Below, in pieces: positions 338 to 28,016 of a stretch of 64,000 bases of DNA. The stretch is taken from the NCBI GenBank assembly GCA_963667035.1, contig OY762964.1, positions 576,001-640,000 of the forward strand, in the 5' to 3' direction. Made by a program: the position numbers and the translations under genes. Each line of letters begins with the position of its first letter. Position 1 is the first letter of the stretch. The notes beneath the pieces were generated by a model. It searched no databases and was not told the origin of the DNA. It was given only the letters and a program-made list of their open reading frames with translations. The DNA comes from Candidatus Cloacimonadales bacterium (GTDB lineage Bacteria; Cloacimonadota; Cloacimonadia; Cloacimonadales; JAFGVF01).

Positions 338-1573
338 TCAGTATTTACCGATAACTATTGCAGAGTTTTGTCCACCAAATCCTAGAGAATTACTTATAGC
401 ATAAGTTATTTTATGGTCTATAGATTTACCTTGTACATAATCAAGGTCACATTCCGGATCCGGATTGATAAGGTTTGCGGTTAAGTGAACTTTTTGATCA
501 TTAATTGACTTAACACAAACGATTGCTTCCATAGCTGCGGCAGCACCTAACATATGTCCAACCATTGATTTTGTTGAACTAATTTTTACTGTATAAGCAT
601 GGTCACCAAAAACACTCTTTATTGCTCTTGTTTCTGTAACATCATTTAAAGGTGTTGAGGTCCCATGTGCGTTAATATAATCAATATCTTCAGGTTTCAG
701 TCCTGCATCAGAAATAGCCATTTGCATAGCTCTGGTACTACCTTCTCCAGATTCAGTTGGAGCGGTAATATGATATGCATCTGCAGTAGCACCATATCCC
801 AAAAGTTCTGCATATATCTTTGCTCCACGAGCTTTGGCATGTTCAAGCTCTTCAAGAACAAGAACAGCTGCACCTTCAGAGATAACAAATCCGTCTCTAT
901 CTTTATCAAATGGTCTACTTGAAGTAGCAGGATCATCATTTCTGGTAGAGAGTGCTTTCATGGATGAGAAACCACCTACAGCCATTGGAGAGACAGAAGC
1001 CTCACAGCCTGTAGTTAAAACCAGGTCAGCGTCACCGTACTGAATAGAACGGAAAGCTGTTCCAATCGCATGATTAGAACTTGCACAAGCAGACACAACG
1101 TTAAAGTTGATACCTTTAAGATTGTGCTCAATTGATATGTGAGCAGATGCTATATTAGATATCATTTTTGGGATAAAAAACGGACTGATACGTCTAGGTC
1201 CTTTCAGAACCTTCTTTTCGACTTCTTCTTCAAATGTATGAATTCCACCAATTCCTGCACCGGTAATGCATCCAAATCTGTCAGGATTGTAGTCACAGTT
1301 CTTTAATCCTGAATCTTTCATTGCCTGACGAGCAGCAACTACCGCGTACTGGGCATATAAGTCTATTTTTTTTACTTCTTTAGCATCAAAATGGTCTATT
1401 GGATCATAACCGTTTATCTGGGCAGCGAATTTGACTCCAAATTTTTCGGTATCAAATCTTTCGATATTTCTTATACCTACTTTCCCGGACAAGAGGTTTG
1501 CCCATGTTTCATCAACACTATTTCCTACAGGGTTTATGGTTCCTAATCCTGTAATAACAACTCTTCTTTTCAT
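338..1573 (-). CDS. fabF: 3-oxoacyl-ACP synthase II
   Basis: RRVVITGLG start, SACASS catalytic Cys, NAHGTST, GHMLGAA, NSLGFGG. Confidence 0.97.
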   Translation of the reverse strand: MKRRVVITGLGTINPVGNSVDETWANLLSGKVGIRNIERFDTEKFGVKFAAQINGYDPIDHFDAKEVKKIDLYAQYAVVAARQAMKDSGLKNCDYNPDRFGCITGAGIGGIHTFEEEVEKKVLKGPRRISPFFIPKMISNIASAHISIEHNLKGINFNVVSACASSNHAIGTAFRSIQYGDADLVLTTGCEASVSPMAVGGFSSMKALSTRNDDPATSSRPFDKDRDGFVISEGAAVLVLEELEHAKARGAKIYAELLGYGATADAYHITAPTESGEGSTRAMQMAISDAGLKPEDIDYINAHGTSTPLNDVTETRAIKSVFGDHAYTVKISSTKSMVGHMLGAAAAMEAIVCVKSINDQKVHLTANLINPDPECDLDYVQGKSIDHKITYAISNSLGFGGQNSAIVIGKY

Positions 1574-1652
1574 AAAAACCTCTGTTCATTAATGTGTAGA
1601 AAATAAAAGGTTGCTCAAATGTTGCCATCCGAACAACCTCAAATATCTAAGA

Positions 1653-1889
1653 TTAACCGTTAAGTTTTGATGTAAGATAACTGACAGCTTGACCAACAGT
1701 GCGAAGTTTGTCCTGATCTTCTTCAGGGATTTCGATATCGAATTTGTCTTCAAACTTCATTACAAGCTCAACTGTATCTAATGAATCTGCACCTAAATCA
1801 TCGATGAAATTAGCTTCATCAGTGATTTGACTTTCATCTACGTTAAGTTCTTCCATTATGATTTTTTTTACTTCTTGTGCGATATCCAT
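1653..1889 (-). CDS. acpP: Acyl carrier protein
   Basis: [12 protein letters not shown] phosphopantetheine site, 78 aa. Confidence 0.98.
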
Positions 1890-1913
1890 TATATCCTCCT
1901 AAGTTTTATACTT

Positions 1914-2660
1914 CTAGATTATAAGGCCACCGTCAACATTGATGACTTGACCTGTTATATATTCTGCTTCATCAGAAGCAAGGAATAAACATAAATCCGC
2001 AACATTCTTCACTGAGCCCATTCTACTTAATGGTATGGCTTTTGCATATTCAGCGATAACGTTCTCACCGAGATTCTCCGTCATCTCGGTTTCAATAAAT
2101 CCCGGAGCTACTGCATTTACTCTTATACCTCTTGAGGCAAATTCTTTAGCAGTAGATTTGGTTAAAGCAATAACTCCACCTTTTGAGGCAGCGTAATTAG
2201 CCTGACCTGCATTTCCCATAACACCAATAACCGAGGCGATATTAACAATAACGCCTGATTTTTGTTTTAAAAGATAACGACTAAGCTTCTGAGTACAAAT
2301 AAAAGTTCCTTTCAGATTTACGGCAATGACTGTATCCCAATCGGATTCTTTCATTCTCATTATAAGGTTATCTTTAGTGATACCGGCGTTATTTACTAAA
2401 ATATCTATGTGACCATGTTTAGCACTTACTTCTTTGAAGATGTCTGCTATAGTATCTCCATCAGTCACATTGGCAGCATATCCTTCAGCTTTGTAACCTA
2501 AATCGGTTAACTTCTTAACTGCTTCATCAATAGATTCTTGCATCAAATCAAGAATAACTATTAAAGCACCTTCTTCAGCAAAGCGTTGTGCTATTCCAAA
2601 GCCTATGCCACGAGCACTTCCGGTTATTACTGCTACTTTATCTTTTAATCTATTCTGCAT
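1914..2660 (-). CDS. fabG: 3-oxoacyl-ACP reductase
   Basis: TGSARGIG, NNAGITKD, YAASK SDR motifs; fab operon context. Confidence 0.96.
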   Translation of the reverse strand: MQNRLKDKVAVITGSARGIGFGIAQRFAEEGALIVILDLMQESIDEAVKKLTDLGYKAEGYAANVTDGDTIADIFKEVSAKHGHIDILVNNAGITKDNLIMRMKESDWDTVIAVNLKGTFICTQKLSRYLLKQKSGVIVNIASVIGVMGNAGQANYAASKGGVIALTKSTAKEFASRGIRVNAVAPGFIETEMTENLGENVIAEYAKAIPLSRMGSVKNVADLCLFLASDEAEYITGQVINVDGGLII

Positions 2661-3606
2661 TGTTTAATCCTTCTAAAACTGTGTCTATATCTGAAAGTTT
2701 ATCAACGTTATAAACAATTGCATTCCTGTCTATTTTTTTTATCATACCACTAAGAACTTTGTTAGGTCCAAACTCAATAAATACTTTAACACCTTCGTTA
2801 ACCATGCGAGTTACACAATCTACCCACAGTACAGAAGATGTTACTTGTTTTGTTAAGTTATCAACAATTTTCATTGGGTCGGTTGCCGGTAAGGCATCCA
2901 CATTTGATACTACCGGAATATCGGTTGTATTGAATTGCATCTTAGTCATTTCTTCATTTAACCAGATACCGGCTTTCTCAATTAGCGGAGAGTGGAAAGG
3001 ACCACCGACAACTAACGGAACAGCTCTTTTAGCTCCATTAGCTTTACATATCTCTGCAGCTTTTTTTACACCTGCTTCACTACCTGATATAACGGTTTGT
3101 ACCGGAGTATTAAAGTTAGCAGCTATTACTATCCCTTCACTTTGGGCTTCTTCACAGGCATTTTTTACACCTTCGGAGTCCATACCGATAATTGCATACA
3201 TTGCATAGGGCTGATCTCCGTTAGCATCAATCATGAATTGTCCTCTTTTATGAACAAGGTGTAATGCATCTTCAACCGATAAAACACCATTTGCAACTAA
3301 TGCTGAGAACTCACCTAATGAATGACCTGCAACGAAACCGGGTGTTATACCGCTTTTCTCTATGAAACTTTTCCAAGCACAGTAGCTATGAAATAAAATA
3401 GCAGGTTGTGTATATTTTGTTTCTTTTAATTCGCTTTCAGGACCTTCAGCCATTATAGTAGCTAGTGTTGTTTCATGATTTGCATCAAAACTAGTTAAAA
3501 TTTCTTGCAGTTCGGGATTTGCTTCTATAAAATCTGAAGCCATTCCAATATATTGAGCACCTTGTCCAGGAAAGACAAAAGCTATTTCTTCATTTGAAAG
3601 GTTCAT
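2650..3606 (-). CDS. fabD: Malonyl-CoA:ACP transacylase
   Basis: FPGQGAQ, GHSLGE, GPFHS. Confidence 0.97.
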   Translation of the reverse strand: MNLSNEEIAFVFPGQGAQYIGMASDFIEANPELQEILTSFDANHETTLATIMAEGPESELKETKYTQPAILFHSYCAWKSFIEKSGITPGFVAGHSLGEFSALVANGVLSVEDALHLVHKRGQFMIDANGDQPYAMYAIIGMDSEGVKNACEEAQSEGIVIAANFNTPVQTVISGSEAGVKKAAEICKANGAKRAVPLVVGGPFHSPLIEKAGIWLNEEMTKMQFNTTDIPVVSNVDALPATDPMKIVDNLTKQVTSSVLWVDCVTRMVNEGVKVFIEFGPNKVLSGMIKKIDRNAIVYNVDKLSDIDTVLEGLNNAE

Positions 3607-3615
3607 TTTTACTCC

Positions 3616-4611
3616 TTAATATCTAAAGAGAACACTACCCCAAGTTAATCCGGCTCCGAAGGAAACAATGTGAATTACATCTCCACGTCTTATCTTTCCC
3701 TCTTCAATTGCTTCGGAAATTGCAATAGGAATAGTAGCGGATGAAGTATTTGCATATTTTTCAATATTAACAATTACTTTATCCTTATTTATCTTCATTT
3801 TATTACCTAGACTTTCAATAATTCTCATGTTTGCCTGATGAGGAACTAACCAATCAAGATCATTGAAGTCCATGTTATTGCGTTTTATTATATTCTCACT
3901 CGTTGAATACATTGATTTAACAGCCAATTTGAAAACTCGATTACCTTGCATTGAAACGGTATGCTTGTTTTCTCTTACAGTTTCTTCAGTTGCAGGTAAT
4001 CTTGAACCACCGGCTTCCTGAACCAATAACTCATGATAGTTACCATCAGCAAGAATCTCAGAATCGATAATCTTGGAAGTTTCATTACTCTGAGCTCTGG
4101 AGATAATGGCTGCACCGGCTCCGTCACCGAAAAGAACACAAGTGTTTCTATCTTTCCAGTTTAGGATTTTTGAGAGTATTTCTACTCCAATAACTAGTAC
4201 ATTCTGCTTTGTTCCGTTCTCCACGAATTGTCTGGCAATATCGGATGCATAGATGAATCCGGGGCATCCTGCCGAGATATCAAAAGCCGGTATCCCTTTC
4301 AACCCGAGATTGTTCTGTACAAAACAAGCTGTTGATGGGAAGGCATGATCGGGAGATATTGTTCCACAGATTATTAAATCTATGTCCTTATACTTAATAT
4401 TTGAGTTTTCGATACAGTTTTGGGCTGCTTTTGTTGCCAAGTCACTTGCTGCCTGCTCAGGAGCTGCAATTCTCCTTTCAAACATTCCTGTTCTAGTTCT
4501 GATCCATTCGTCACTTGTATCAACTATTTTCTCAAGATCGTAGTTGTTTAAGATTTTCTCAGGAACATAACGTCCGAACGCAGTATACTTTGCTTTGTAT
4601 TTCATATTCAC
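3616..4611 (-). CDS. fabH: 3-oxoacyl-ACP synthase III
   Basis: DTSDEWIRTRTG, AGCPGF, PHQAN, ANTSSA. Confidence 0.96.
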   Translation of the reverse strand: MNMKYKAKYTAFGRYVPEKILNNYDLEKIVDTSDEWIRTRTGMFERRIAAPEQAASDLATKAAQNCIENSNIKYKDIDLIICGTISPDHAFPSTACFVQNNLGLKGIPAFDISAGCPGFIYASDIARQFVENGTKQNVLVIGVEILSKILNWKDRNTCVLFGDGAGAAIISRAQSNETSKIIDSEILADGNYHELLVQEAGGSRLPATEETVRENKHTVSMQGNRVFKLAVKSMYSTSENIIKRNNMDFNDLDWLVPHQANMRIIESLGNKMKINKDKVIVNIEKYANTSSATIPIAISEAIEEGKIRRGDVIHIVSFGAGLTWGSVLFRY

Positions 4612-10252: not shown

Positions 10253-10258
10253 TATTAT

Positions 10259-10281
10259 CTCCTTAATTTCATATTAAGGAG
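10259..10281 (-). promoter_or_regulatory. SD-sequestering hairpin (riboswitch expression platform)
   Basis: Minus strand CTCCTTAAT-atgaa-ATTAAGGAG-ataata-ATG: a perfect 9-bp stem whose 3' arm contains the AAGGAG RBS of the SucCD fusion. Confidence 0.75.
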
Positions 10282-10387
10282 GGTTAGAGTAACCTATGTG
10301 AATAGTAATAGAGAAGTATTACCCCTTATCCACAAGCGTCATACACTTTCCCTCCGAAAGTAATTCCGTACAGATTTAAATCTGTAT

Positions 10388-10544
10388 GATACGGCATGTC
10401 TCCTGACTTGAAGTTTACCTCCGAGCTCCCTTCCCATCAGTTTAATGACAGTGGTATGAACTCTTTGTTCCTTCTTACAGTAGCGGGGGCTGTTCTCGAT
10501 TTTCACGAGATTCCATCTTAGCTCTTCATTAGAGAACCAGTATC
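10388..10544 (-). ncRNA. Cobalamin (B12) riboswitch
   Basis: Minus strand: GAUAC-UGGUUC...AAGAUGGAA-UCUCG-UGAAAAU-CGAGA-ACAGCCCCCGCUACUGUAA...CCACUG...GGGAAGG...AAGUCAGGAGACAUGCC-GUAUC. All canonical blocks are present, including the B12 box, with P1 GAUAC/GUAUC. Confidence 0.93.
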
Positions 10545-10656
10545 TTGTTTAATGATTATTTGCTTCAAAATGAGTCAAGAAAATCTTACTGCTTTCTTCA
10601 ATGTTTGCTCCATTAGTACAGGTAAGTTCCCATATTTCATTAATATACATTTCTTT

Positions 10657-10943
10657 GTAATATGTGCTCACATATTACCAGATACGCAAGGATCCTGCTC
10701 GCTATAAGACATGCCGGTAAAATGCTAGCGTACCCCGGTTTGTAGTGCAAGTGCCCTCACTTGCACATAGCTCGAAGAGCTATATTTTTTGCATACTTTG
10801 TCAGCACAGCAATTCAGGGGAGTCGCAGTACATCATACGAGTTTGCGAGTACAACGCAAAGCGATTACACCATGTTCCGATTGGAGTCGAACTCCCACCG
10901 GTCGTTTGGACTTGAGCTATAGACTATTACCTGTAGAACATCC
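10657..10943 (-). ncRNA. Candidate structured non-coding RNA, family not recognised
   Basis: About 47% GC by hand count over 10681-10940, within AT-rich intergenic DNA. Several perfect hairpins; G-U wobbles favour the minus strand. No credible ORF. Confidence 0.5.
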
Positions 10944-11128
10944 TTTTATATATATTAGCTCACAAAATCCTCATTTTAGTCACAACATCCCCTTTTTTTT
11001 ACATTTTGCATCTTTCATTTAGCATTTTCTCTTAATTTCTAATTCATATTCCTCTCTCTGCTCTAAGCAGTAACAATTGCTTTTAAATCAATTCTAACTT
11101 ATTAATAAATTAGTAATTTCTTGATAAT

Positions 11129-11227
11129 TAACCCAAGGATTACCCAAGGATTACCCAAGTGTTTCACAAGTATTTCACAGGAATTACTGCAGGGAGATGA
11201 AGGAGAAGTAAAGAAGAAGTAAGCAGG
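11129..11227. repeat. 11-bp-period degenerate tandem repeat
   Basis: Units: taacccaagga/ttacccaagga/ttacccaagtg/tttcacaagta/tttcacaggaa/ttactgcaggg/agatgaaggag/aagtaaagaag/aagtaagcagg. Confidence 0.75.
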
Positions 11228-11297
11228 TCGTGCATATTTCTTGACATACATGTTTCAGGGGTATACTAGTCGGTAAGAAATAATACAGGATGTGAGT

Positions 11298-13595
11298 ATG
11301 AAGTATTCTATAGCCATTGTTTTTGTGATGTTAATGAGTTTTCTATTAGCCGGTGTTGGAGTGAGAATTATACCGGATAGATACGAAGAGTTAACTGAGG
11401 AATTGGAGAGAGGAGATGTTGATTCTCTCCGATTTGAAGAAATTAAAGAGATTATGAGGAAGGATTTCCCGAATACAAAGACTTCATTTGAACTTGTTAG
11501 TAATGAATTCTACTCTCTAATTAATCCTATCTGGACAAATGACTCTCTGAATGTATCAGTTCTATCAGGTATGCTTGAAAAGTATCCTCGGAATAACCGG
11601 AGAAGGACAATTTACCAATATTACCTCTATTCATTAGCAAATCTACATAGGAATGAAGCTATTATGGATGCTCTTAAAAACTTTCGAAGAGCATTTAAGG
11701 ACGATTATATTAGTTGGTATTTGAGTGCCAGATATTACAGCTCTTTGGAAATAGACTCTCTGAAAGCATTAAGCTATGCAGAGAAAGCATATTTAAAAAG
11801 CAGAAACTATCCAAAGCTTAAGTTCTATCCAAAAATGGAATGGGAGTTAGAGAAACGTTCAGCTCCTGTTAAATCAGCAACGTTATATGCGAATCTGCTC
11901 TTGAAGAACGGTAATGATAAAGCAGCTAAAAGAGTGCTTAATGAAATAATAAAGAATAACGAGCTCGGTATTGAAGATGAAGAAACACTAGCCTCCTGTT
12001 ACTATATATATGCAAAGTACTATGATAAGATTGGTAAGCCTAAGAAGTCGGCAGAACAATCAGTGAAGGCTCTTGTTGCAGGAGATTTACGAAACAGTTA
12101 TGCTCCTTTGGCAGATTCACTTTTGAGAAAAACAGAAGGTATGACTAACAGCACGAATGAAGAGGTACTCGTTAAAGCTAGGGAGTTGGCAAAATATAAA
12201 GGTGTAACATTCAAAGATGCTACTTCGGAATTGGGTTTGAGTGATGTCTCGGCTGGAAGGGTCGCTTTAGCCGATTACAATCTGGACGGCTATGTAGATA
12301 TATTGCTAGACAACGGTCATCTGTACAAAAACAATAAGGGAATAGGTATTGAAGATGTAACTTCGGAAGCATTCAATGGTAGCTTCTCTTCTGGTGGTTC
12401 TGTTTGGGCGGATATGGATAATGACGGTGATTATGATATTGTTACAAAAGATCCAGAAGCTGTTTGGCTGAATAACAATGGAGTGTTCTCAAAACCGGAA
12501 AAGGATAACGGACTAAGTGATAACGGTATTTCGACTGAGGGGCTTGGTGTCGGTGATGTGAATGGAGATGGCTTGCCTGATATATATTATGCAAATTATG
12601 AAATTTGGACCGGAAGTAACTCCGAACCGTTCGCTGATCAGTATTATCAAAATATTGGGAATGGTAGATTCAAAGAAATGACTGCCGAAGCCGGTCTTTT
12701 GCCAGAAGATGGAAAACCCAGAGCCGGTAGGGGAGTGAACTTCGGTGATTTCGATAACGATGGAGATTTGGATATCTATGTTTCAAATTATAGACTTCAA
12801 GATAATTTCCTATGGCAGAACGATGGAACAGGCCACTTTACGGAAGTTTCGGAACTAAAGGGAGTGAAAGGAGATAAGGTCGACAATTGGTATGGTCATA
12901 CTATCGGTTCACAATGGGGAGATATTGATAATGACGGTGATTTGGATTTGATATGTGCTAATTTAGCTCATCCTCGTTATATAGATTTCTCTAACAAAAC
13001 AAGGGTATACATTAATAGCGGAGCTCCCGATTACACTTTCACGGATAGAAGAAAAGAGAAAGGTATTGTATACGAAGAAACTCACTCGGAACCTTTACTA
13101 GCTGATTTTGATAACAATGGCTATCTTGACCTGTATTTAACTTCTGTTTATGATGGAAGACGTTCATTCCTATACATGCAACAAGAAAACGGTACATATA
13201 TTGATAATGCTTATTTAGCCGGAGTGAGACATTTCAACGGATGGGGAAGTGCTTCAGCCGATTTTAACAATGACGGGAAAATGGATTTTATTGTTTGCGG
13301 AGGAAAGATTCAACTCTTTATCAATACTACCGAGATAAAGAATAATTGGTTAGAGATTGATGTTAAGCCAGGAGCTGAGAGAAATGTTATAGGAACCCGA
13401 ATATTATTTAAAGGCAAGCATGGTACTTATACAAGAGAAATTGAAGGTGGAAAAGGGACAACAAATCAGAGTAGTCTGGTCCAACATATCGGTTTAGGAA
13501 AAGAGAAGAAGGGAGAGTTGGTAATAACCTATCCCGACGGGCAGGTTGTGAAGAGGCAGATTGAAAAAGTTAATAGAAGAGTTGAGATAGAATAA
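11298..13595 (+). CDS. Secreted TPR-like + FG-GAP/VCBS repeat + ASPIC/UnbV (CRTAC1-like) protein
   Basis: Signal peptide, helical N-terminal half, repeated DxDNDGDxD motifs, C-terminal NNWLEI...QHIGLG...ITYPDG. Confidence 0.85.
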   Translation: MKYSIAIVFVMLMSFLLAGVGVRIIPDRYEELTEELERGDVDSLRFEEIKEIMRKDFPNTKTSFELVSNEFYSLINPIWTNDSLNVSVLSGMLEKYPRNNRRRTIYQYYLYSLANLHRNEAIMDALKNFRRAFKDDYISWYLSARYYSSLEIDSLKALSYAEKAYLKSRNYPKLKFYPKMEWELEKRSAPVKSATLYANLLLKNGNDKAAKRVLNEIIKNNELGIEDEETLASCYYIYAKYYDKIGKPKKSAEQSVKALVAGDLRNSYAPLADSLLRKTEGMTNSTNEEVLVKARELAKYKGVTFKDATSELGLSDVSAGRVALADYNLDGYVDILLDNGHLYKNNKGIGIEDVTSEAFNGSFSSGGSVWADMDNDGDYDIVTKDPEAVWLNNNGVFSKPEKDNGLSDNGISTEGLGVGDVNGDGLPDIYYANYEIWTGSNSEPFADQYYQNIGNGRFKEMTAEAGLLPEDGKPRAGRGVNFGDFDNDGDLDIYVSNYRLQDNFLWQNDGTGHFTEVSELKGVKGDKVDNWYGHTIGSQWGDIDNDGDLDLICANLAHPRYIDFSNKTRVYINSGAPDYTFTDRRKEKGIVYEETHSEPLLADFDNNGYLDLYLTSVYDGRRSFLYMQQENGTYIDNAYLAGVRHFNGWGSASADFNNDGKMDFIVCGGKIQLFINTTEIKNNWLEIDVKPGAERNVIGTRILFKGKHGTYTREIEGGKGTTNQSSLVQHIGLGKEKKGELVITYPDGQVVKRQIEKVNRRVEIE

Positions 13596-13612
13596 AACAT
13601 TTAGATATATAG

Positions 13613-18768: not shown

Positions 18769-20156
18769 ACCCCAAACATAGACCCGGCGGAATAGCAGAA
18801 ATGCTGGCTATTGCTCTTCCCATGGTTATTTCCATGGCATGCGACGGAGTAATGGTTTTTACCGATAGACTCTTTTTAGCGAGTCTAAGTCCGGTACATA
18901 TGAATGCAGCAATGGGTGGTGGTGTTATGATTTCCACTTTTACATTGTTCTTCGTAGGCTTAACCGGATATTCTACCGCATTAGTCGCTCAATATCTTGG
19001 AGCGGGATTGAAGAAAAAATCAGCGAATGTGACTTTTCAAGCCATTATCATCTCTTTGCTTTCTTTCCCCGTTTTTGTTCTGGTAAGACCCTTGGCAGGA
19101 TTGCTCTTCAGTTTGATGAAGATTCCTCCTGAACAGCTTGTTTTACAGAATCAATATTTTAATATCCTGATTCTGGGGTCAGTATTTGCAATCCTTAGAA
19201 ACAGCTTCAGCTGTTTCTTTTCAGGGATTGGTAAAACCAAATACGTTATGATTTCGGCAATTGGAGCCATGGTCGTTAATGTAATAGCAAATTATTGCCT
19301 GATATTTGGCAAATTTGGAGCACCTGCCTTAGGTATTAGAGGTGCAGCTATCGGTACAATCATAGGTAGTATTTTTGGTATGATCCTATTGATGTTTGCA
19401 TATTTCTCAAAGAATAATAGAGAAGAATACAATGTTATGGCATCCTCTAAGTTTAATATGGATATGATGAAGAAACTTCTTTATTACGGATCTCCTCAAG
19501 GTTTTGAAAGCTTATTGAATATGCTTGCCTTCTCAATTATGGTTTACATATTTTATGCTCAAGGTAATGTCGTTGCAACTGCAACAACCGTGATGTTTAA
19601 CTGGGACTACGTCTCATTTATTCCGCTTATTGGAGTTGAAATTGGTGTAACAAGTCTGGTAGGGAGATACATGGGAGCTGGCGATCCTGATACAGCACAT
19701 AAAGCTACAATGTCTGGGATAAAAACAGGTTTCCTGTATTCTGCGTTGTGTTTCCTTCTATTCTTCCTGATTCCTGAACCACTCGTGAGAATGTTTAAAC
19801 CGAATGAAACTGTTGAGATTTTTGAACAAGCAGTACCAATAGCTGTTATGATGCTCAGAATTGCTACTCTATATATTTTAGCTGAATCAGTTATGATAAG
19901 CTTTGTAGGGGCTTTAAGAGGAGCAGGAGATACTTACTGGGCGATGCGTTCATCAGTGATTTTACACTGGTTGTTTGTACCGATTATTTGGGTGTCTTTC
20001 AATGTTTTCCATTTCTCAGCAATCACTGGTTGGATTATCCTGGTATCATTTATACTTATATTCTGCCTTGTCTTCGCCTGGAGATACTATAAGGGAAAAT
20101 GGCGAACCTTAAAAGTTATCGAAACTCCGGGAGTTGATTTTCCCGAATATTTATAA
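18765..20156 (+). CDS. MATE family efflux transporter
   Basis: About 12 TM helices; AQYLGAG, GIRGAAIGT, GALRGAGDT. Confidence 0.92.
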   Translation: MNPKHRPGGIAEMLAIALPMVISMACDGVMVFTDRLFLASLSPVHMNAAMGGGVMISTFTLFFVGLTGYSTALVAQYLGAGLKKKSANVTFQAIIISLLSFPVFVLVRPLAGLLFSLMKIPPEQLVLQNQYFNILILGSVFAILRNSFSCFFSGIGKTKYVMISAIGAMVVNVIANYCLIFGKFGAPALGIRGAAIGTIIGSIFGMILLMFAYFSKNNREEYNVMASSKFNMDMMKKLLYYGSPQGFESLLNMLAFSIMVYIFYAQGNVVATATTVMFNWDYVSFIPLIGVEIGVTSLVGRYMGAGDPDTAHKATMSGIKTGFLYSALCFLLFFLIPEPLVRMFKPNETVEIFEQAVPIAVMMLRIATLYILAESVMISFVGALRGAGDTYWAMRSSVILHWLFVPIIWVSFNVFHFSAITGWIILVSFILIFCLVFAWRYYKGKWRTLKVIETPGVDFPEYL

Positions 20157-20161
20157 AGATT

Positions 20162-20192
20162 AAAAGTGACTCGGAATTGAGTCACTTTTTTT
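20162..20192 (+). terminator. Rho-independent terminator
   Basis: aaaagtgactc-ggaatt-gagtcactttt followed by a T run. Confidence 0.85.
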
Positions 20193-20366
20193 ATGAATGG
20201 GCTATTGATGCATAAATAGAACTCTTCTCACAATAGAAACATATTCAAATCATTATTCATGCAAGTAAGATAACAAAGAATAATAGTTAAAAGTAAAAAC
20301 TTTAATTGACTTAATTAGTAATCTTTCATATCTTTGATATTAATCAATGGAGGATAACTATTTATT

Positions 20367-21617
20367 ATGTATTTACTACAAAAGATTACTGGAAACAAGT
20401 TTAACCGAATTAATTCAATTATTGATTCATATAATTATACTCAGAATAATTTCATCAATCTTATTGCCTGTGTATGTTATATTTTTCCAGAAGTTATAGA
20501 AGCGATGAAATTCCCATTATCCACTTTGCCAACAGAAGGATTAATGAATAATAGATATTTCCCAACATATGATTATATGGAAAGAATTGAAGTATTATCA
20601 CAAGAGCAAGCCTTGAAATTGTTTAAAATTAGTTCTGGTTATAAAGTAAACATACAACCACATTCAGGAACTCAAGCTAACCATATTATTTACAATGCAA
20701 TATTAAAGGATGGAGATAGGGTTATTAGCATGTCTCCTTTTGATGGCGGACATATTTCACACACTAAATTAGCTGGAAGAAAATTAGAGTTACTTCATTT
20801 CTATTTGAATGACGACTACAAACTGGATTACAATCTGATTGAGAATATGATTATGGAGTTTAAACCAACTCTGTTAATTGCAGGAGTTAGTTCTTATCCA
20901 AGAGAAATTGACTTCCAACTTCTATCACAGATATCACACAAGCATAATTGCTATATTCTTGCTGATATAAGTCATACTGCTATATTTGTTGCAGGAGAAG
21001 TACATAAAAACGTTTTCCCATATGTAGATTTTGCTACTTTCACTATGGAAAAAAACTTGAGAGGTCCTCATGGAGGAGTTATCATTTATAAAGAGAAATT
21101 TCACAAGGCAATATCATATTCAACATTCCCTATATCCCAAGGAGGTCCTATACAAAATATGCTTTTTGGTAAACTTGTTGCATTTGAATTACTAAATCAA
21201 ACAAATGTTAAAGAATATGCTAATAGATTGGTTTCAAATGCCAGGAGTGTATCTAAAACATTATTAGAGAGAGGTTGCGATGTTGTAACTTCAGGGACAG
21301 ATAGTCACATAATCTTAGTTAATACTAAATCTCATGGACTTCTAGGTAATAAAGCTGAGAATATCCTAGAAAAGAACAGAATTTTGGTAAATCGAAATCT
21401 GATTCCAAAAGATAAAGAGAAACCTTTAATTACTTCTGGGATTAGAATAGGGAGTACTACAATTACTAATCTTAATTATGAGTTTGTAGACGTCATAAAT
21501 TTATCCAATACTTTAGCTGATGTATTATTGAATAGAAAAACTGATGAACATAATGTAAGATATCTATTGAACAAATACCATAGTAGTATCAATATCTCCA
21601 GTGAGGAGACAAAATAA
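20367..21617 (+). CDS. Divergent serine hydroxymethyltransferase-like PLP enzyme
   Basis: VNIQPHSGTQAN, GGHISH, DISH, TMEKNLRGPHGG, SQGGP, GTDSH, TSGIRIG. Several canonical GlyA residues are substituted, so glyA is not assigned. Confidence 0.88.
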   Translation: MYLLQKITGNKFNRINSIIDSYNYTQNNFINLIACVCYIFPEVIEAMKFPLSTLPTEGLMNNRYFPTYDYMERIEVLSQEQALKLFKISSGYKVNIQPHSGTQANHIIYNAILKDGDRVISMSPFDGGHISHTKLAGRKLELLHFYLNDDYKLDYNLIENMIMEFKPTLLIAGVSSYPREIDFQLLSQISHKHNCYILADISHTAIFVAGEVHKNVFPYVDFATFTMEKNLRGPHGGVIIYKEKFHKAISYSTFPISQGGPIQNMLFGKLVAFELLNQTNVKEYANRLVSNARSVSKTLLERGCDVVTSGTDSHIILVNTKSHGLLGNKAENILEKNRILVNRNLIPKDKEKPLITSGIRIGSTTITNLNYEFVDVINLSNTLADVLLNRKTDEHNVRYLLNKYHSSINISSEETK

Positions 21618-23940
21618 ATAGAAATTGTATTAATCCATCATTTATAGGTAATTTAATAACTAGCTCATTACCTGTTTCTTTTCTTGCATTAAGTCTTGTT
21701 AGGAAATAGCTAGAGATTTGAATTGTTTTGTTAGTTACTAAACAACTTTCAATTGATACTAGATTGTAACCTATACAAAACTGCATCCATGGATCTTGAA
21801 TTTTAGTAACACATTCATACATTTTTTCTATTTCACTCTTAGCCATTAGAATATCCAATTCTTTTAAGGCAATATTAATAATAATCTGATTATTCGACAG
21901 CATTAATTGATCTAATATTAGTGACTTAGGATAAGAATCAATCGCTCTTTCGATGTATTCTTTTGCGATATCATATTTTCTATTTATCGTATATAAAGCA
22001 GCCATATTACACAATGGTTCAAAAATTTCATTAGAGTTTATTTGATTAAACAACTCTATGGAATTTGATAAATTTCTCTCAGCTTCAGGATAACTGTGGT
22101 TCCATAAATAAACTAATCCTAAATTGTTTAGCGCAGTAGCTCTACCAAACAGAAAATTGTTTTGTCTGAAATAATTGTAAACACTTTTCAGATTTATAAT
22201 AGCTTTCTCATAACTAAAATAATGTGCTGAGTTTCTTAAAATTACGAAATATGACTCATCATTGGTTGGTGGAAGATTATAGATTATTTCTTTTGCTTCT
22301 TTATCGTAGCAAAGGTGTTGGTAAATGTTTAACCTATACAAGATTGTTTCCAATTTGTTGTTATCTAATTGAGTGCATACTTTTAACGCTTCTTTAAAGT
22401 GATAGGATTGAGTTAGGTACTTAACCTTATATAGCAAATAATCTGAAGTTTTTGCATAAGTTGTATCTTCAATAATTCTAATTGCTTCAATTCCTAAATA
22501 AATCTCAGAAGTTTTTTGAAATGAGTCAAGTAACTGAGTGACCGAGATATCTGGCAAAATGGTTATTATTTCTTTATACGCTTTATAAATAAGGATGATG
22601 TATTGATACATATTATTATTATATTGAATGTCGATTAGTCGTATAACGTAATCAAGTTTGGTCTTATATTGATTTATTGAAAAAATACCAACAAAGCAGT
22701 GGAGTATATAAGAATAATCATTAGGAGCTATGTTAGTATTAAACAGCTCCTCCATTGCAATCAAGATATCATCTCTAATCTGGAGAAACTCTTCATCAGT
22801 TAAACCTTTCTTTGTAGAAGTAATAATCTTCTCGTGAGCTGGTTTAAGAAGTTGTCCATTAGAACTATTTAGTACTATGTATCCAATCTTTACCAAATCT
22901 CTAATGCTATCCTCAATAACATCATTTTCGTTTCCATTCAGAATAGACTTAAGTAACTCTATAATGTATTTCTTTTTCATTCCTGCAGGAAACATTGATG
23001 AGATTGTTACCAAATATTTTTTTATATAAGGAAAATAGCATATTGTTTCTGTGATATCATAAATACTTTTTCTTGTAGTTGGCTCTTTATAAGCATTTAA
23101 GAACAATTCCATTTCTTTTAAGTTACCTAATGTTTTTTCATAACACCTATTAGCAACGAACATAGCTTCTTCATGATTGCAGTGTATAACTTTTTTTACT
23201 AATTCTATGATCTCATCAATGTTAAATTGAGAAAGGGATATGAGTAAACTACTTTTAGTAAAAGTAGAAGCAAGATTAAAATTATCAATATCTAAAATTG
23301 TTCTGTTAATAAATATAAAATTTATCTCTTTTTTTAATCGCGAAATATGAGACTCAAAAAGAGTTTTAGTATATTTAGGTAGAAATTGATAGTTATCTAT
23401 GGCAATATAGGTTTTAGTTTTATTTGCTATATAATCTAAGTATTTATATAAGGTAATCATTATATCTGGTGTAGGATCATGAGAATTCTTTTTAAATAAA
23501 TTTCTCGGGAAAAGCTCTTTTAAAGGTTTTCCAAATGAAGGTATTAATTCTAAAGTTGATGAGATAGTTTTAACCAGTTTATTTATAGCAGACTTCTTTA
23601 ATCCTGAGGATTTTAAAAAGGCAGGGAATGTACATCCTTTTAAAACATTTAGTGGATAGTTAAATTCAAACGAATGCTCATTCCAAGCACAATAGATTAA
23701 ATATTCAGCAAAAAGAGTAATAGTAAAATCATCATTACTCAAATCTATGTAAATCATAGTAACATCTTTTTGAATTGTATATATTGAATGCATTAACTCC
23801 TTTACTAGAAAAGTTTTTCCTGTACCAGAATTACCTTCTACGATAAGGAGTTTAGGTTGTTTCTTTTCTATATTCTTGAAAAAAGACATAGCAGAATCAA
23901 TTAAGCATTGTCTCACAACGAATGGAAATCTAGAACCCAT
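21589..23940 (-). CDS. P-loop ATPase (AAA/STAND-like) with C-terminal TPR repeats
   Basis: Walker A GNSGTGKT, Walker B YIAIDNYQ, T-x-GN motif, TPR-like ATALNNLGLVY...NMAALY...YDIAKEYIERAI. Confidence 0.8.
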   Translation of the reverse strand: MGSRFPFVVRQCLIDSAMSFFKNIEKKQPKLLIVEGNSGTGKTFLVKELMHSIYTIQKDVTMIYIDLSNDDFTITLFAEYLIYCAWNEHSFEFNYPLNVLKGCTFPAFLKSSGLKKSAINKLVKTISSTLELIPSFGKPLKELFPRNLFKKNSHDPTPDIMITLYKYLDYIANKTKTYIAIDNYQFLPKYTKTLFESHISRLKKEINFIFINRTILDIDNFNLASTFTKSSLLISLSQFNIDEIIELVKKVIHCNHEEAMFVANRCYEKTLGNLKEMELFLNAYKEPTTRKSIYDITETICYFPYIKKYLVTISSMFPAGMKKKYIIELLKSILNGNENDVIEDSIRDLVKIGYIVLNSSNGQLLKPAHEKIITSTKKGLTDEEFLQIRDDILIAMEELFNTNIAPNDYSYILHCFVGIFSINQYKTKLDYVIRLIDIQYNNNMYQYIILIYKAYKEIITILPDISVTQLLDSFQKTSEIYLGIEAIRIIEDTTYAKTSDYLLYKVKYLTQSYHFKEALKVCTQLDNNKLETILYRLNIYQHLCYDKEAKEIIYNLPPTNDESYFVILRNSAHYFSYEKAIINLKSVYNYFRQNNFLFGRATALNNLGLVYLWNHSYPEAERNLSNSIELFNQINSNEIFEPLCNMAALYTINRKYDIAKEYIERAIDSYPKSLILDQLMLSNNQIIINIALKELDILMAKSEIEKMYECVTKIQDPWMQFCIGYNLVSIESCLVTNKTIQISSYFLTRLNARKETGNELVIKLPINDGLIQFLFILSPHWRY

Positions 23941-23956
23941 AATAAATAGTTATCAT

Positions 23957-24919
23957 TTATTCATTCAACACCTCCTTACTCATTGAAAATTTCCGTCTTG
24001 GATGTTTTGAGTTTAGGATTTTCTTTTGGCTCTTTCTATTTACATGAGTATATATTTGGGTTGTATTGATTGAGCTATGTCCCAGAAAGTGTTGAATATA
24101 CTTTATATCTACACCCTCTTCCAATAGAAGAGTAGCGAAGGTATGTCGGAAGGTATGAGGAGTGATTTTTTTATCTATTTTCGCTAATTTAACATATCTG
24201 TTTATCATAAATCGTACTGATTGAGCTGAAATGTTATTGTCTAATCTGTTAAGAAAAAAGTAGGTTCTATTAGGGTGATTTTTAGCAATTGCTATATCAA
24301 AGTTCCTAAGAGATTGAATAATTTCTTTACTACAGATATGTATGATTCTTTCTTTTGCTCCTTTCCCATAAACAATAATATGATTACTTTTTAGATCAAT
24401 TTGATTGTGCTTGAGTGAACAAAGCTCCGAAATTCTTATTCCTGTTCCAAACAATAACTCTAGAATCGCAATATCCCTACAACATGAAGTGTAAGTATAG
24501 TGACTGGAGTTTATCATAGAGTTCTTAAAATTGTATGCAGAAGTAAGTATTCTTTTTACTTCGCTTAATGTTAGCACATTAGGTAGAGTTTTAGGAACCT
24601 TAAGTTTGATGCGTAGTTTCCTAAAAGGGTTTACAGCTATAATATCTTCAAATTCAAGATAGTTTAAGAATGATTTTAAAGACGCTATTTTCCTTTTAGC
24701 TGTTTTAACTTTGTATGAAGACACTAAAAATTCCACATACTGTCTGATTAATGCCTTGTCTAAATTAGATATATCCGATTGAGAATCACCTGTCTTTTCA
24801 TTAATAAAGTTCATGAATTGAGTAAAATCCGATTTATATGCCGATAAGGTTTTCTTACTTAGGTTCTTCTCATAAGTGCAATGAAAAGTAAACTGCTCCA
24901 AACATTCTTTAACTGTCAT
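23957..24919 (-). CDS. Tyrosine recombinase/integrase (XerC/D-like)
   Basis: N-terminal SAM-like domain (LSKKTLSAY); catalytic set GIRISEL, GKGAKER, HTFRH, LGHSS, TQIYTH. Confidence 0.95.
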   Translation of the reverse strand: MTVKECLEQFTFHCTYEKNLSKKTLSAYKSDFTQFMNFINEKTGDSQSDISNLDKALIRQYVEFLVSSYKVKTAKRKIASLKSFLNYLEFEDIIAVNPFRKLRIKLKVPKTLPNVLTLSEVKRILTSAYNFKNSMINSSHYTYTSCCRDIAILELLFGTGIRISELCSLKHNQIDLKSNHIIVYGKGAKERIIHICSKEIIQSLRNFDIAIAKNHPNRTYFFLNRLDNNISAQSVRFMINRYVKLAKIDKKITPHTFRHTFATLLLEEGVDIKYIQHFLGHSSINTTQIYTHVNRKSQKKILNSKHPRRKFSMSKEVLNE

Positions 24920-25124
24920 TTAAACTCCCCAATTTAAATGTAGAACAACTTAGGAATATAGAATATCATGTCTATAGTGAATTTGGAAAAGAGTAATCAA
25001 TAGTTCCATGACTAACTATCAACTTTCATAATCTAATCAGTATGGTATCAGTTATGTTTCTCAATAATCTGATTGACTAAACACGAAGGTCAGAAATATT
25101 CTCTGAGAATAAGGAGAGTATATT

Positions 25125-28016
25125 ATGAGACTAAAGATAGTTTTTTCGATATTGTTACTGGTATTGCTGTCCATATTGATAGCCAGACCTCATTTTGAGG
25201 AACCTACACCTACATATGAAACGGAACAATACTTTAAAAGTTATATTAGAGCTGATTCATTGCATGGTTTTGATGTTGAGAAATATGAGATTTATCTATC
25301 CATTGATGATCAGGCACAATATATAAATGGAAATGTAATTGCAACGGTAACAGCAGAAGAGAATCTTCAGTCGATAGAATGGGATCTTTGTGGGCTAACT
25401 GCAACAGCAGTTGAAGTTAATGGAATAATGCAGAATAATTTTTCACAAAATGATACTCATGTAATAATTCCATTAGCAGGAATATCCAATGGTGATCAGT
25501 TCTCAACAACAGTTTACTATTCAGGTAATCCATCTTTGAGCCCTTCTCCTTATGGATGCGGGATGTTCTTCAGAACCGGCTCTGTCTTCACTATTTCCGA
25601 CCCGGATGCGTCACGATATTGGTGGCCATGCTATGATCATCCATGGGATAAAGCTTTAGTTGATTTGCATGTAACCGTTAGAGACGATTGGGTCGCAGCA
25701 TGTAACGGATTAAGAGATTCTATAGAGGATAATGGGGACGGTACGAGAACCCATCACTGGTTAGGCTCAAACCCTATGACTACATATCTTGCTTGTATAA
25801 CAGCCGGTAATTATCAGGAACTTCCTTTGCAATACTACAACGATATACCAATTCAAGATTTTGTTTTACCTAATCAGGTAGCAAATGCAACTGAAGATTT
25901 ATCTAGATTGCCTGATATGATGAGTGCTTTCTCCCAGATGTTTGGAGAGTATCCCTTTGAAAAATACGGACAGACAACTGTAAGTATGGGAGTATATGGT
26001 GCTATGGAACATCAAACTATGACTACTCTCAATAGTTACATGATAACAGGAACACATCTTTATGATACTACTTATGCTCATGAACTTGCTCATCAATGGT
26101 TTGGTAATTGCCTAAGCGTGCTTACTTTTAAAGATATATGGTTATCAGAGGGATTTGCTACATACTCAGAAGCTCTTTGGACTGAATATGATCAGGGATA
26201 CGAAGCAATGTGCGAGTACTTTCAAGATAACATATCGGGTTATTATCTATCCTATGCAAATAGTCATGGACCTCAGACAACCTACGATCCAGCCTTCAAT
26301 GCTATATTTACTCCGGTATCTTACGAGAAACCCGGCTCTGTTCTTCATATGCTAAGAGCAAGAGTGGGGAATGAGATGTTTTTCGATATTCTCCAATCCT
26401 GGTTTCAGGAGCACCATAATGGTAATGTGATTACTTCTGAGTTTCAAGCAAAATGCGAAGAGTTAACGGGAGAGGACTTTAGTCAGTTCTTTGACCAATG
26501 GATATATGGTTCCGGAATCCCGGAATTAGAATATAGTGTCTTTTACAACTATAATCTAGCCATACCTAGATATAAAGTATATGCTAAATCCATATCAAAT
26601 ACTGATACGGAATTTGTTCTTGATATTCCTTTCCATTACAATAGTCCTACTTTAGCAGATAGTTCGTTAGTACAAGCCGGACCGGAAGTAACAGAATCCA
26701 TAGTACTTCTTAACTATATTCCTACCGGCTACAGCATAGACCCTAATAATTGGATGCTCTTGAGAGGAATGACAGAGAAAAGGGTAGAAATTGTTGATGC
26801 TTACGCCGGAGTCAGCAGTGCAAGGGTTTCTTGGTCTCCTTACTGGACAGATGTTCAACCTGTTGGTTACTATATCTATAGAGCTACATTTGACGGTCCG
26901 TTTATACTCCAAACAATAGAACCTATCACAGGAACCGAATGGGTAGACAGTGATTTATCTCCCGAGACAGAGTATTCTTACTATGTGGTTGCCGTTGATA
27001 ATCAAGGTTTTGAATCAATGCCGTCTGAGACACGTATTGTTAGGACAATAGATATGCCAATGGATCAGGGAATGCTTGTAGTTGATGAAACTAGAGATTT
27101 AGGCGGTACAATACTTTCTCCTAATGATCTGCAGGTAGACGATTTTTATAGAACAATATTCGAAGATATGATTTATACAGAATATGATTATGCTTCTCAA
27201 GGTACTATTACTTCTCAGATACTTGGACAGTATTCTACAGTTTTTTGGCATAATGATGATTTTACCGAGTTGCTTATTAATGATAATCTAAATGCTTTAG
27301 GTAGCTACATTCTTGAAGGAGGAAATCTAATTCTCTCAGGGTTTAAGATTGCCGGACAAATTGACCAGGATTTTCTTACTCAATACTTCCCTAACTTAAC
27401 ACCCATTTATGCAAATAATTCAGTGTTTGAATATGCATATAGTAATGAATATCCCAGCTTGATAATAGATCAATCAAAGCTCCCTGCAAATTGGAATCAG
27501 AACCTCAGAATGACATATAGCTTCCCTAATTATTCCGAAAATGCTATCTATAATGCCGATTATTCCGATACAGAGCCAACAGATGGTAATGGAGTTATTA
27601 TAGCTACTGACACCGGAGGTTCTCTAACGATTAGCGGTATACCTCTATATATGTTTGAGATCGACGGTGTGAGGAGTTTTCTTAATCAGTATATTGCTTC
27701 TATTGACGAATCAGTGAGTAATAATGAACAACAGCAGGAATTAGGGGTTATTGCTATTAATGCGTATCCGAATCCATTTAATCCCGAACTGAATATAAAA
27801 ATAGAAGGTTTGAGTGATGAAAGGGTTGAAGTTTCTATATACAATGTCAAGGGACAGAAAGTAATGGCTTTATTCAATGATGTTGTTAAAGGAAGCAAGG
27901 AGCTTGTTTGGTCAGGTAGAGATAGCAATAATCATAAAATGGGGTCAGGCATATATTTTGTGAAAGTCAAAACAGATAGTGTAGCAACTACTAGAAAGAT
28001 AATATTGCTTAAATAG
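25125..28016 (+). CDS. Secreted M1-family Zn aminopeptidase with FN3 and C-terminal FlgD-Ig/T9SS-A-like domain
   Basis: Signal peptide; GAMEH; HELAH...WLSEGFATY; FN3 (YSYYVVAVD); C-terminal AYPNPFNP...GSGIYF...RKIILLK. Confidence 0.9.
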   Translation: MRLKIVFSILLLVLLSILIARPHFEEPTPTYETEQYFKSYIRADSLHGFDVEKYEIYLSIDDQAQYINGNVIATVTAEENLQSIEWDLCGLTATAVEVNGIMQNNFSQNDTHVIIPLAGISNGDQFSTTVYYSGNPSLSPSPYGCGMFFRTGSVFTISDPDASRYWWPCYDHPWDKALVDLHVTVRDDWVAACNGLRDSIEDNGDGTRTHHWLGSNPMTTYLACITAGNYQELPLQYYNDIPIQDFVLPNQVANATEDLSRLPDMMSAFSQMFGEYPFEKYGQTTVSMGVYGAMEHQTMTTLNSYMITGTHLYDTTYAHELAHQWFGNCLSVLTFKDIWLSEGFATYSEALWTEYDQGYEAMCEYFQDNISGYYLSYANSHGPQTTYDPAFNAIFTPVSYEKPGSVLHMLRARVGNEMFFDILQSWFQEHHNGNVITSEFQAKCEELTGEDFSQFFDQWIYGSGIPELEYSVFYNYNLAIPRYKVYAKSISNTDTEFVLDIPFHYNSPTLADSSLVQAGPEVTESIVLLNYIPTGYSIDPNNWMLLRGMTEKRVEIVDAYAGVSSARVSWSPYWTDVQPVGYYIYRATFDGPFILQTIEPITGTEWVDSDLSPETEYSYYVVAVDNQGFESMPSETRIVRTIDMPMDQGMLVVDETRDLGGTILSPNDLQVDDFYRTIFEDMIYTEYDYASQGTITSQILGQYSTVFWHNDDFTELLINDNLNALGSYILEGGNLILSGFKIAGQIDQDFLTQYFPNLTPIYANNSVFEYAYSNEYPSLIIDQSKLPANWNQNLRMTYSFPNYSENAIYNADYSDTEPTDGNGVIIATDTGGSLTISGIPLYMFEIDGVRSFLNQYIASIDESVSNNEQQQELGVIAINAYPNPFNPELNIKIEGLSDERVEVSIYNVKGQKVMALFNDVVKGSKELVWSGRDSNNHKMGSGIYFVKVKTDSVATTRKIILLK

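Follow-up and report, generated by a model that had tools for sequence, protein, structure and literature searches.

A 3,602-bp DNA segment carrying two convergent genes was found to invert in a Candidatus Cloacimonadales bacterium, with both orientations coexisting in one population. The segment lies within a 64,000-nt stretch of the genome (positions 576,001 to 640,000 of contig OY762964.1, assembly GCA_963667035.1; hereafter the window, numbered from its first base), and the source genome is a single 3.1-Mb contig. One of the two genes encodes a P-loop ATPase with tetratricopeptide repeats (TPR) that belongs, by its predicted fold, to the signal transduction ATPases with numerous domains (STAND; 21589-23940, minus strand; 783 amino acids (aa)). 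The other encodes a diverged paralogue of serine hydroxymethyltransferase (SHMT), a pyridoxal 5'-phosphate (PLP) enzyme (20367-21617, plus strand; 416 aa). A gene for a Xer-like tyrosine recombinase (23957-24919, minus strand; 320 aa) stands outside the flipping segment and reads into it. The reading that we prefer, and to which we assign a probability of roughly 0.6, is that of an inverton with an obligate two-gene cargo, in which each flip would swap the transcriptional inputs of the two genes and whose products would form a conflict or anti-phage module.

The three open reading frames (ORFs) lie where a first-pass annotation, made from the sequence of the window alone, had placed them: the two cargo genes overlap tail to tail by 29 bp (21589-21617), and a gap of 16 bp (23941-23956) separates the ATPase gene from the recombinase gene. 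The segment is bracketed by two 28-nt inverted repeats (20342-20369 on the left and 23938-23965 on the right), which are 86% complementary over their length and share an identical 17-nt core, GATAACTATTTATTATG. The ATG of the SHMT-like gene forms the end of the left core (20353-20369) and that of the ATPase gene the end of the right core (23938-23954), the last three core bases being the start codon of each cargo gene. The two core sites bound the 3,602 bp that hold both convergent genes, with the recombinase gene just outside and its stop codon (23957-23959) within the outer part of the right repeat. The first-pass annotation had not noted the repeats, which alter how the recombinase is to be interpreted.

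Inversion was followed in three public sequencing runs (X1, X2 and X3) of one sample, which is probably the source of the assembly; the material consisted of contigs, not raw reads. These contigs break exactly at both cores, and the 3,602-bp segment forms a separate contig. In X2 and X3, loose contig ends join the left flank to codons 2-5 of the ATPase gene and the recombinase-side flank to the start of the SHMT-like gene, and both mirror-image joints are also there. Junction contigs of 43 nt in X3 have depths of 7 and 10 for the reference orientation and of 4 and 3 for the flipped one. Only the reference form was found in X1, and a run with the same species label from a different sample (X4) contains next to none of the locus sequence. 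Since both orientations occur in one sample, the switch is active. Inverted repeats that bracket a segment, a site-specific recombinase gene beside it and both orientations in a single sample, features by which invertons are recognized, were found here, and the flip is presumably catalysed by the adjacent recombinase.

Relatives of the locus (loci are given L numbers, genomes G numbers and proteins P numbers) are also found in alternative states. In Streptococcus, L017 and L018 have conserved flanks and are 99.97% identical once the segment of one is inverted, and L025 shows the same rearrangement. The nearest relative of the window, in a Prolixibacteraceae metagenome-assembled genome (L013), was assembled in the opposite state: its recombinase reads into the SHMT-like gene, whereas that of the window reads into the ATPase gene. 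Flipping would also leave cassettes in short-read assemblies as orphan contigs of 3.5-4.5 kb, and several contigs of this size consist of the segment alone and end in the repeats. L036 (3,576 bp) is the segment with repeats at both ends, and L033 ends in the repeat on one side.

The recombinase is intact, as the first-pass annotation had stated, with a Phage_integrase domain (Pfam PF00589, 147.3 bits), an N-terminal SAM-like domain and the catalytic motifs GIRISE, HTFRHTFA, LGHSS and IYTHV. Exactly two inverted core pairs and one intact recombinase of this family are present in the genome; two other Xer-like genes elsewhere in it are 31% identical, one of them read through a TAG stop. Dimer resolution by XerC/XerD was considered and rejected, as the NCBIfam scores lie below the equivalog cut-offs (247.3 against 335.15 for XerC and 244.3 against 329.6 for XerD) and the sites are two inverted pairs around cargo rather than a single dif. 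An integron was rejected as well: integrase models scored 131.3 against a cut-off of 265 and 79.3 against 435, and the sites form inverted core pairs, not an attC array.

To judge from their distribution, the ATPase-TPR gene and the SHMT-like gene form an obligate pair, and a rare one. A word-indexed search of 5.8 billion proteins returned 17 clusters of the ATPase family, and a profile search of 1.84 billion proteins returned 121 representatives with an E value of 1e-30 or better. Species genomes yielded 29 loci, distributed over Bacteroidota, Acidobacteriota, Mycoplasmatota and Bacillota, including many mitis-group streptococci, and at all 29 the SHMT-like gene is convergent with the ATPase gene and overlaps its end. 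Another 49 loci came from metagenomes, 42 of which were informative, as they include the C-terminal end of the ATPase and 600 nt or more of downstream sequence. All 42 have a convergent SHMT-like gene, which abuts the ATPase gene in 41 and follows it at L125 after a gap of ~150 nt. The pairing that had been picked out at a single locus is therefore borne out by gene neighbourhoods at 71 of 71 informative loci. The overlap between the cargo genes measures 4-41 bp in 18 distinct relatives. Phage carriage was not detected, with no tblastn match to the ATPase in 50,697 phage records, and one of 72,556 plasmids carries the ATPase. On this plasmid, from Streptococcus salivarius, the module stands beside PezAT and insertion sequence (IS) elements and is annotated only as a recombinase, a TPR protein and a PLP enzyme.

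Repeats and recombinase accompany the pair at most of the genome loci. With the window counted, a scan found a repeat pair at 25 of 30 genome loci; that of L034, which is located further out, came from a pattern search. The general form of the core site is GATAA-N7-TTAT(C/G), and at least two sites of this pattern occur at 29 of the 49 metagenome loci. The L014 and L030 lineages have repeats whose sequence is unrelated to the core. By reading of the locus maps, the recombinase adjoins the repeat at 21 of the 30 genome loci; another eight are truncated where their contigs stop, and at L015 no recombinase was found within 6.7 kb.

The flipping segment of Clostridia-type copies is longer, at ~4.4 kb. 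An extra conserved ORF of ~95 aa was observed upstream of the ATPase gene in these copies (1919-2206 in L034; also in L032, L035, L039 and 11 metagenome loci). It has no Pfam match and could be a third component in this lineage. Also observed was a 24-nt inverted repeat (92%) inside both coding sequences of L034 (3169-3192 and 5990-6013) and of L035, which covers a stretch of the SHMT-like gene translated QNNYINLE; L032 has a weaker internal repeat of 19 nt. The true core pair of L034 lies outside the 24-nt repeat, which could have arisen by chance, the DNA being AT-rich, or could serve as a secondary site of crossover, which would yield chimeric genes.

The SHMT-like protein scores 287.6 bits against the Pfam SHMT family and 323.7 against the NCBIfam SHMT model, under the cut-off of 335, and aligns over its full length with solved SHMTs (E value 3.7e-78). 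A separate housekeeping glyA (548.7 bits) is located elsewhere in the genome. Residues K229, D200, H203, H129, E57, R360 and N344 are invariant in 14 family members, and the PLP lysine, Asp200, His203, the stacking His, Ser175, the GGP loop, Glu57, Tyr64, the carboxylate Arg and the folate Asn are all kept. SHMT site residues are listed in PMC7916883, and five of the PLP-site positions given in the available part of that source are replaced across the family: Ser35 by Cys or Ser within a changed SEN motif, Tyr55 by an invariant Pro, Tyr65 by Phe or His, His228 by Glu, Asp or Gln, and Arg235 by His, Gln, Asn or Cys. This pattern of residues points to a PLP enzyme that is catalytically competent and probably still folate-linked, with a changed substrate pocket. 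The protein shares the full-length SHMT fold and most site residues with GlyA and with SHMT-like aldolases and transaldolases, but it differs from GlyA in falling below the NCBI cut-off, in being a second copy beside glyA and in the five replaced site residues. Co-folding of the SHMT-like protein, carried out with ATPase residues 400-783 only, gave a score of 0.00.

The partner protein had been described at first as a STAND-type ATPase-TPR protein without an effector domain, and its predicted structure agrees with that description. Pfam recognizes TPR_12 (35.9 bits), with weak AAA_16 and nSTAND matches below their cut-offs. An AlphaFold2 model built from 25 sequences (mean predicted local distance difference test score 84.6) presents a P-loop nucleoside triphosphatase (NTPase), then helical and winged-helix parts, then a repeat sensor. 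Foldseek ranks the archaeal STAND-TPR protein 6mfv first (E value 1.5e-14) and MalT second; further matches include Orc1/Cdc6, SAMD9, Apaf-1, CED-4, Avs3 and plant nucleotide-binding leucine-rich-repeat (NLR) proteins, and NCBIfam gives a weak TPR match to AfsR. Because the Walker A motif (GNSGTGKT, residues 36-43) begins at residue 36, there is no N-terminal effector domain, and the Pfam scan detected neither an effector domain nor a DNA-binding domain.

Approximately 25 residues of the ATPase do not vary between phyla; many of these are polar and belong to the TPR half. The C-terminal SPHWRY singled out in the first-pass annotation is real, as the tail LSPxWRY is nearly invariant in the family. 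The idea that SPxWRY is conserved through the antisense overlap or a hairpin was rejected: the tail is kept where the overlap measures 4 nt (L031 and L033) and in GC-rich loci, which argues for selection on the tail at the protein level. The '...INISN' end of the enzyme is a by-product of the overlap. Some relatives have other N-termini. P0006 and P0008 carry an N-terminal PRTase-CE domain, which in P0006 scores 162 bits against type III-A retron PRTase models, and PRTase-CE is listed with type III retrons in a table in the available part of PMC13712802. The N-terminal part of P0024, in which Pfam found no domain, matches the PADLOC 'chat' model weakly (47.9 bits). Some streptococcal copies, among them L021 and L040, have a disrupted ATPase (an ORF of 541 aa in L021 and no intact ORF in L040) together with an intact SHMT-like gene and recombinase.

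The swapped PRTase-like and CHAT-like N-termini of relatives, together with the defence and mobile genes in the neighbourhood, argue for a role in defence, and a conflict or anti-phage module is most likely what the cargo constitutes. Among 75 flanking ORFs scanned from 16 loci were Thoeris ThsA/ThsB, OLD-TOPRIM with UvrD (Gabija-like) in three loci, zeta/epsilon pairs, HEPN-MNT, AAA_13 and DUF4365 proteins, transposases and Rep/FtsK genes. The pair, which had been put forward as undescribed, has no model in PADLOC, and assignment to a known PADLOC anti-phage system or to Avs was rejected, there being no system match and no N-terminal effector domain. The ATPase does resemble Avs/AVAST and NLR-like proteins in its sensor fold of NTPase, helical, winged-helix and TPR parts, with Avs3 among the Foldseek matches, and in that some of its relatives carry swapped N-terminal domains matching defence-effector models. 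Unlike Avs, it is without an effector domain or a PADLOC Avs match, and its TPR part is strongly conserved across phyla.

Convergent cargos of other kinds stand between sites with the same core, accompanied by the same recombinase family, at L048, L061, L062, L075, L076 and L077, and L078 has the same layout with only one core site matched. Inverted core pairs around these cargos were seen where flanks were available. Most of the cargos are large P-loop or STAND-type NTPases that face enzymes. In one, a methyltransferase gene and a distant SHMT-like gene face an 896-aa ATPase; in others, a 1,031-aa ATPase faces two family 2 glycosyltransferase (GT2) genes, a GT2 gene faces a 1,116-aa STAND-TPR protein, and YbaK-like, Ddl-like ATP-grasp, unknown and GNAT genes face an 803-aa STAND protein. 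L078 holds a 1,054-aa STAND-TPR protein facing GT1/GT4 genes. In a further cargo, next to Lamassu LmuB, an ATP-grasp gene and an unknown gene stand opposite a pentapeptide-repeat protein. The second inverted core pair of the window's own genome, GGATAACTATTAATTATG, lies ~300 kb from the window (L048, 4955-7177; G000:C1 ~902953-905177) and encloses an unknown gene of 335 aa and, converging on it, an FAD-oxidoreductase-like gene. Beside it is a decayed recombinase copy with stop codons, with a KAP-family NTPase nearby, and the intact recombinase of the window may serve this second pair in trans.

Recombinase relatives occur in 3 of 232 genomes of the window's phylum, its own genome counted, and in 6 of 401 genomes of one Bacteroidota order, including G232, the holder of L013. 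Among the large NTPases of the other cassettes, only that of L076 matches the window ATPase over its whole length (E value 1.6e-17). Full homology to the NTPases of L061, L062, L077 and L078 was rejected, as the matches cover only short stretches and are best at the P-loop. In the recombinase tree, a recombinase from a cassette with different cargo is the sister of the window's enzyme (support 100/98). L013 shares its cargo with the window, but the sister of its recombinase goes with GT2 cargo (support 100/99). Since sister recombinases carry different cargo, cargo and platform do not co-diverge, and this tree pattern fits cassette exchange.

Two further observations concern the surroundings of these cassettes. 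At L075, the Lamassu LmuB gene (1301-4432; PADLOC 745 bits) points into the G546 cassette, its end being 16 nt ahead of the core, and the defence operon may supply this cassette with outside transcription. Beside the G040 cassette, L061 carries at 13157-13609 four copies, ~128 nt apart, of a ~60-nt palindromic unit whose inverted-repeat arms of 55-70 nt are 77-82% complementary.

Because the cores abut the start codons, there is no room for promoters inside the segment, and transcription would have to enter from outside. In the mechanism we infer for the window, the recombinase operon would provide one input and the promoter-like far flank the other. A candidate promoter in that flank, P_far (TTGACT-17-TATCTT; 20306-20334, plus strand), lies 18 nt before the left core and reads into the segment, and the flank also holds GGAGG. 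Of five far flanks compared, those of the window, L048, L062 and L077 have a TTGAC-like motif at the aligned position, which is degenerate in L075. A flip would exchange which gene receives which input and would thereby change the ratio of the two products heritably and reversibly. The STAND protein would act as a nucleotide-dependent sensor or switch, and the SHMT-like PLP enzyme as its metabolic arm, acting on a serine- or glycine-like amino acid and probably folate.

The main rival explanation, unlikely but the best placed of those considered, is an either/or toggle. The G segment of phage Mu is promoter-less and has two inward-facing coding units with the recombinase gene just outside, and the architecture of the cassette matches this logic. 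With one effective promoter, a cell would make either the STAND protein or the SHMT-like enzyme but never both, and the products would act independently, for example as alternative costly states for bet-hedging. A weak promoter match on the far side is in line with this explanation, as is the convergent overlap without a terminator, across which the stronger transcript would continue into the other gene as antisense. That two unrelated genes are strictly co-inherited at 71 of 71 informative loci across phyla, however, suits joint function better. Streptococci, moreover, carry extended -10-like motifs on both flanks, and the element takes ~65 bp of the streptococcal far flank along to different contexts. 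In the window's phylum and at Bacteroidota-type loci the recombinase reads into the segment, so that the proximal gene should be transcribed at least at the level of the recombinase.

Less likely again, and in our estimate improbable, is a phase-variable metabolic or surface-modification module with no direct immune function. The STAND protein would then be a MalT/AfsR-like regulator or a scaffold, and the partner enzymes would make or modify a small molecule or an envelope component. The rank of MalT as second-best structural match and the weak TPR match to AfsR favour such a role, the enzymes of the wider class look biosynthetic, and the invariant TPR residues fit a small conserved ligand. 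Yet no DNA-binding domain was detected in the ATPase, the PRTase-like or CHAT-like N-termini of its relatives match defence-effector models, and its neighbours are rich in defence and mobile genes rather than in envelope or biosynthetic clusters.

The setting of the locus in the genome bears on a further possibility. The G+C content is 0.27-0.31 over 20-25 kb of the window against 0.36-0.39 in the flanks on both sides, in keeping with the AT-rich block of the first-pass annotation. A terminator-like hairpin after a MatE gene (20162-20189) marks the left limit of this block; upstream of the recombinase, a non-coding stretch (24920-25124), divergent from an M1 peptidase gene, is the presumed promoter region of the recombinase. 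Homology with G001, a genome of the same genus, ends at window position 20157, the MatE stop codon, and restarts within the M1 peptidase gene. A full-length ATPase match was found in none of 40 relatives of the window genome, 11 of which have TPR-only matches of at most 26.5 bits. From this break in homology and the lack of a full-length ATPase homologue in the relatives, the block is accessory in its source genome and not core among the relatives. No empty site was found in G001, where one could not be demonstrated because the two flanking genes lie on different contigs. An RNA family scan of 19800-25400 gave only a chance snoRNA match (E value 0.21) and no riboswitch. A static integrase-borne islet with a fixed defence pair of ATPase-TPR sensor and SHMT-like effector, as first proposed, would suit the accessory, AT-rich block, the intact recombinase and the presence of the module in different genomic contexts in streptococci and on a plasmid, but it is very improbable given that the inverted sites surround the cargo only and leave the recombinase outside, that the demonstrable rearrangement is an inversion with the segment found in both orientations, and that neither a tRNA gene in the window nor an empty site was found. 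Elsewhere in the window (10253-11291), three features coincide: a reversal of the GC skew at ~11 kb, a switch in gene strand and a ~1-kb gap without an ORF of at least 100 aa; this may be a replication origin or terminus or a mere strand-bias boundary, and no dnaA is present among the four neighbouring ORFs.

Several observations weigh against an inverton with swapped inputs and a defence role. The runs that show flipping all come from one sample, and do so as contigs rather than raw reads. The scan that gave P_far found one site where 2.3 are expected by chance and is not significant alone, and a consensus scan of 24920-25124 found no recombinase promoter, the sole minus-strand match (25149-25122) lying above that stretch. 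No RNA run contains the locus. With respect to function, the ~25 invariant residues of the ATPase fit a conserved ligand better than fast-evolving phage proteins, and in PADLOC v2 neither the SHMT-like protein nor the recombinase has a match, while the ATPase has only that of its P-loop to mad8 (22.9 bits). The partner enzymes of the wider class (glycosyltransferases, ATP-grasp, GNAT and methyltransferase) are atypical of abortive-infection effectors. The N-terminus of the L078 STAND protein resembles Mrr_cat with a score of 0.86, which is a lead only; some STAND proteins of the wider class may have a nuclease-like N-terminus of their own, in which case the enzyme need not be the effector.

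In overall design the inverton is closest to two kinds of known switch. The G, C and P segments of Mu, P1 and e14 resemble it in having the recombinase outside and inward coding units that need outside transcription. These segments are flipped by the serine invertases Gin, Cin and Pin, which join homologous tail-fibre gene ends to a constant 5' part, whereas the window has a recombinase of the tyrosine type, complete and unrelated genes and no constant coding part outside the segment. A Gin/Cin/Pin-type segment was ruled out by the tyrosine recombinase and the unrelated cargo families. PinQ, as presented in the available part of PMC12529663, belongs to the same comparison. The tyrosine-recombinase inversions covered in the available parts of PMC7672463 and PMC9881135 (fimS with FimB/FimE, Bacteroides invertible promoters and hsdS invertons) share with the window a dedicated recombinase beside short inverted repeats and both orientations in one population, with bet-hedging as their presumed role. 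Those switches flip a promoter or shuffle homologous gene halves, in contrast to a whole promoter-less cassette of two unrelated, complete, convergent genes with sites abutting both start codons. A term search of the available text of the programmed-inversion survey PMC9881135 found no hydroxymethyltransferase, SHMT or glyA, and 'tetratricopeptide' and 'ATPase' once each, in gene-family tables. We found no paper on the pair, on cassette invertons with STAND cargo or on an SHMT-like partner, in a search that left subscription journals and bioRxiv supplements outside its scope. The finding joins two known kinds of system, tyrosine-recombinase invertons and STAND immunity, and the SHMT-like pairing and the cassette design were not found in print and appear to be new.

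Taken further, the locus could belong to a widespread class of recombinase-driven STAND/enzyme flip cassettes in which the SHMT-like enzyme is a new immune arm, an extension that we regard as tentative and more doubtful than not. The Xer-like recombinase and the core GATAA-N7-TTATC would then be a platform that toggles its cargo and, over evolutionary time, exchanges it. The flip would set the ratio of sensor to enzyme and leave armed and disarmed cells in one clone, and the activated enzyme would disturb the folate/one-carbon pool or a serine- or glycine-derived metabolite, starving phage nucleotide synthesis. If this is true, heritable phase variation would extend beyond promoters and specificity subunits to complete gene pairs of immune type, a point of relevance to the ways in which bacteria contain the costs and autoimmunity that STAND/NLR-like sensors bring. 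In at least four phyla an NLR-like protein would have gained a housekeeping one-carbon enzyme as its obligate partner, and the metabolic arm of immunity would become directly testable. The common recombinase and core site would likewise constitute a natural cassette platform, and would serve as a guide to further systems.

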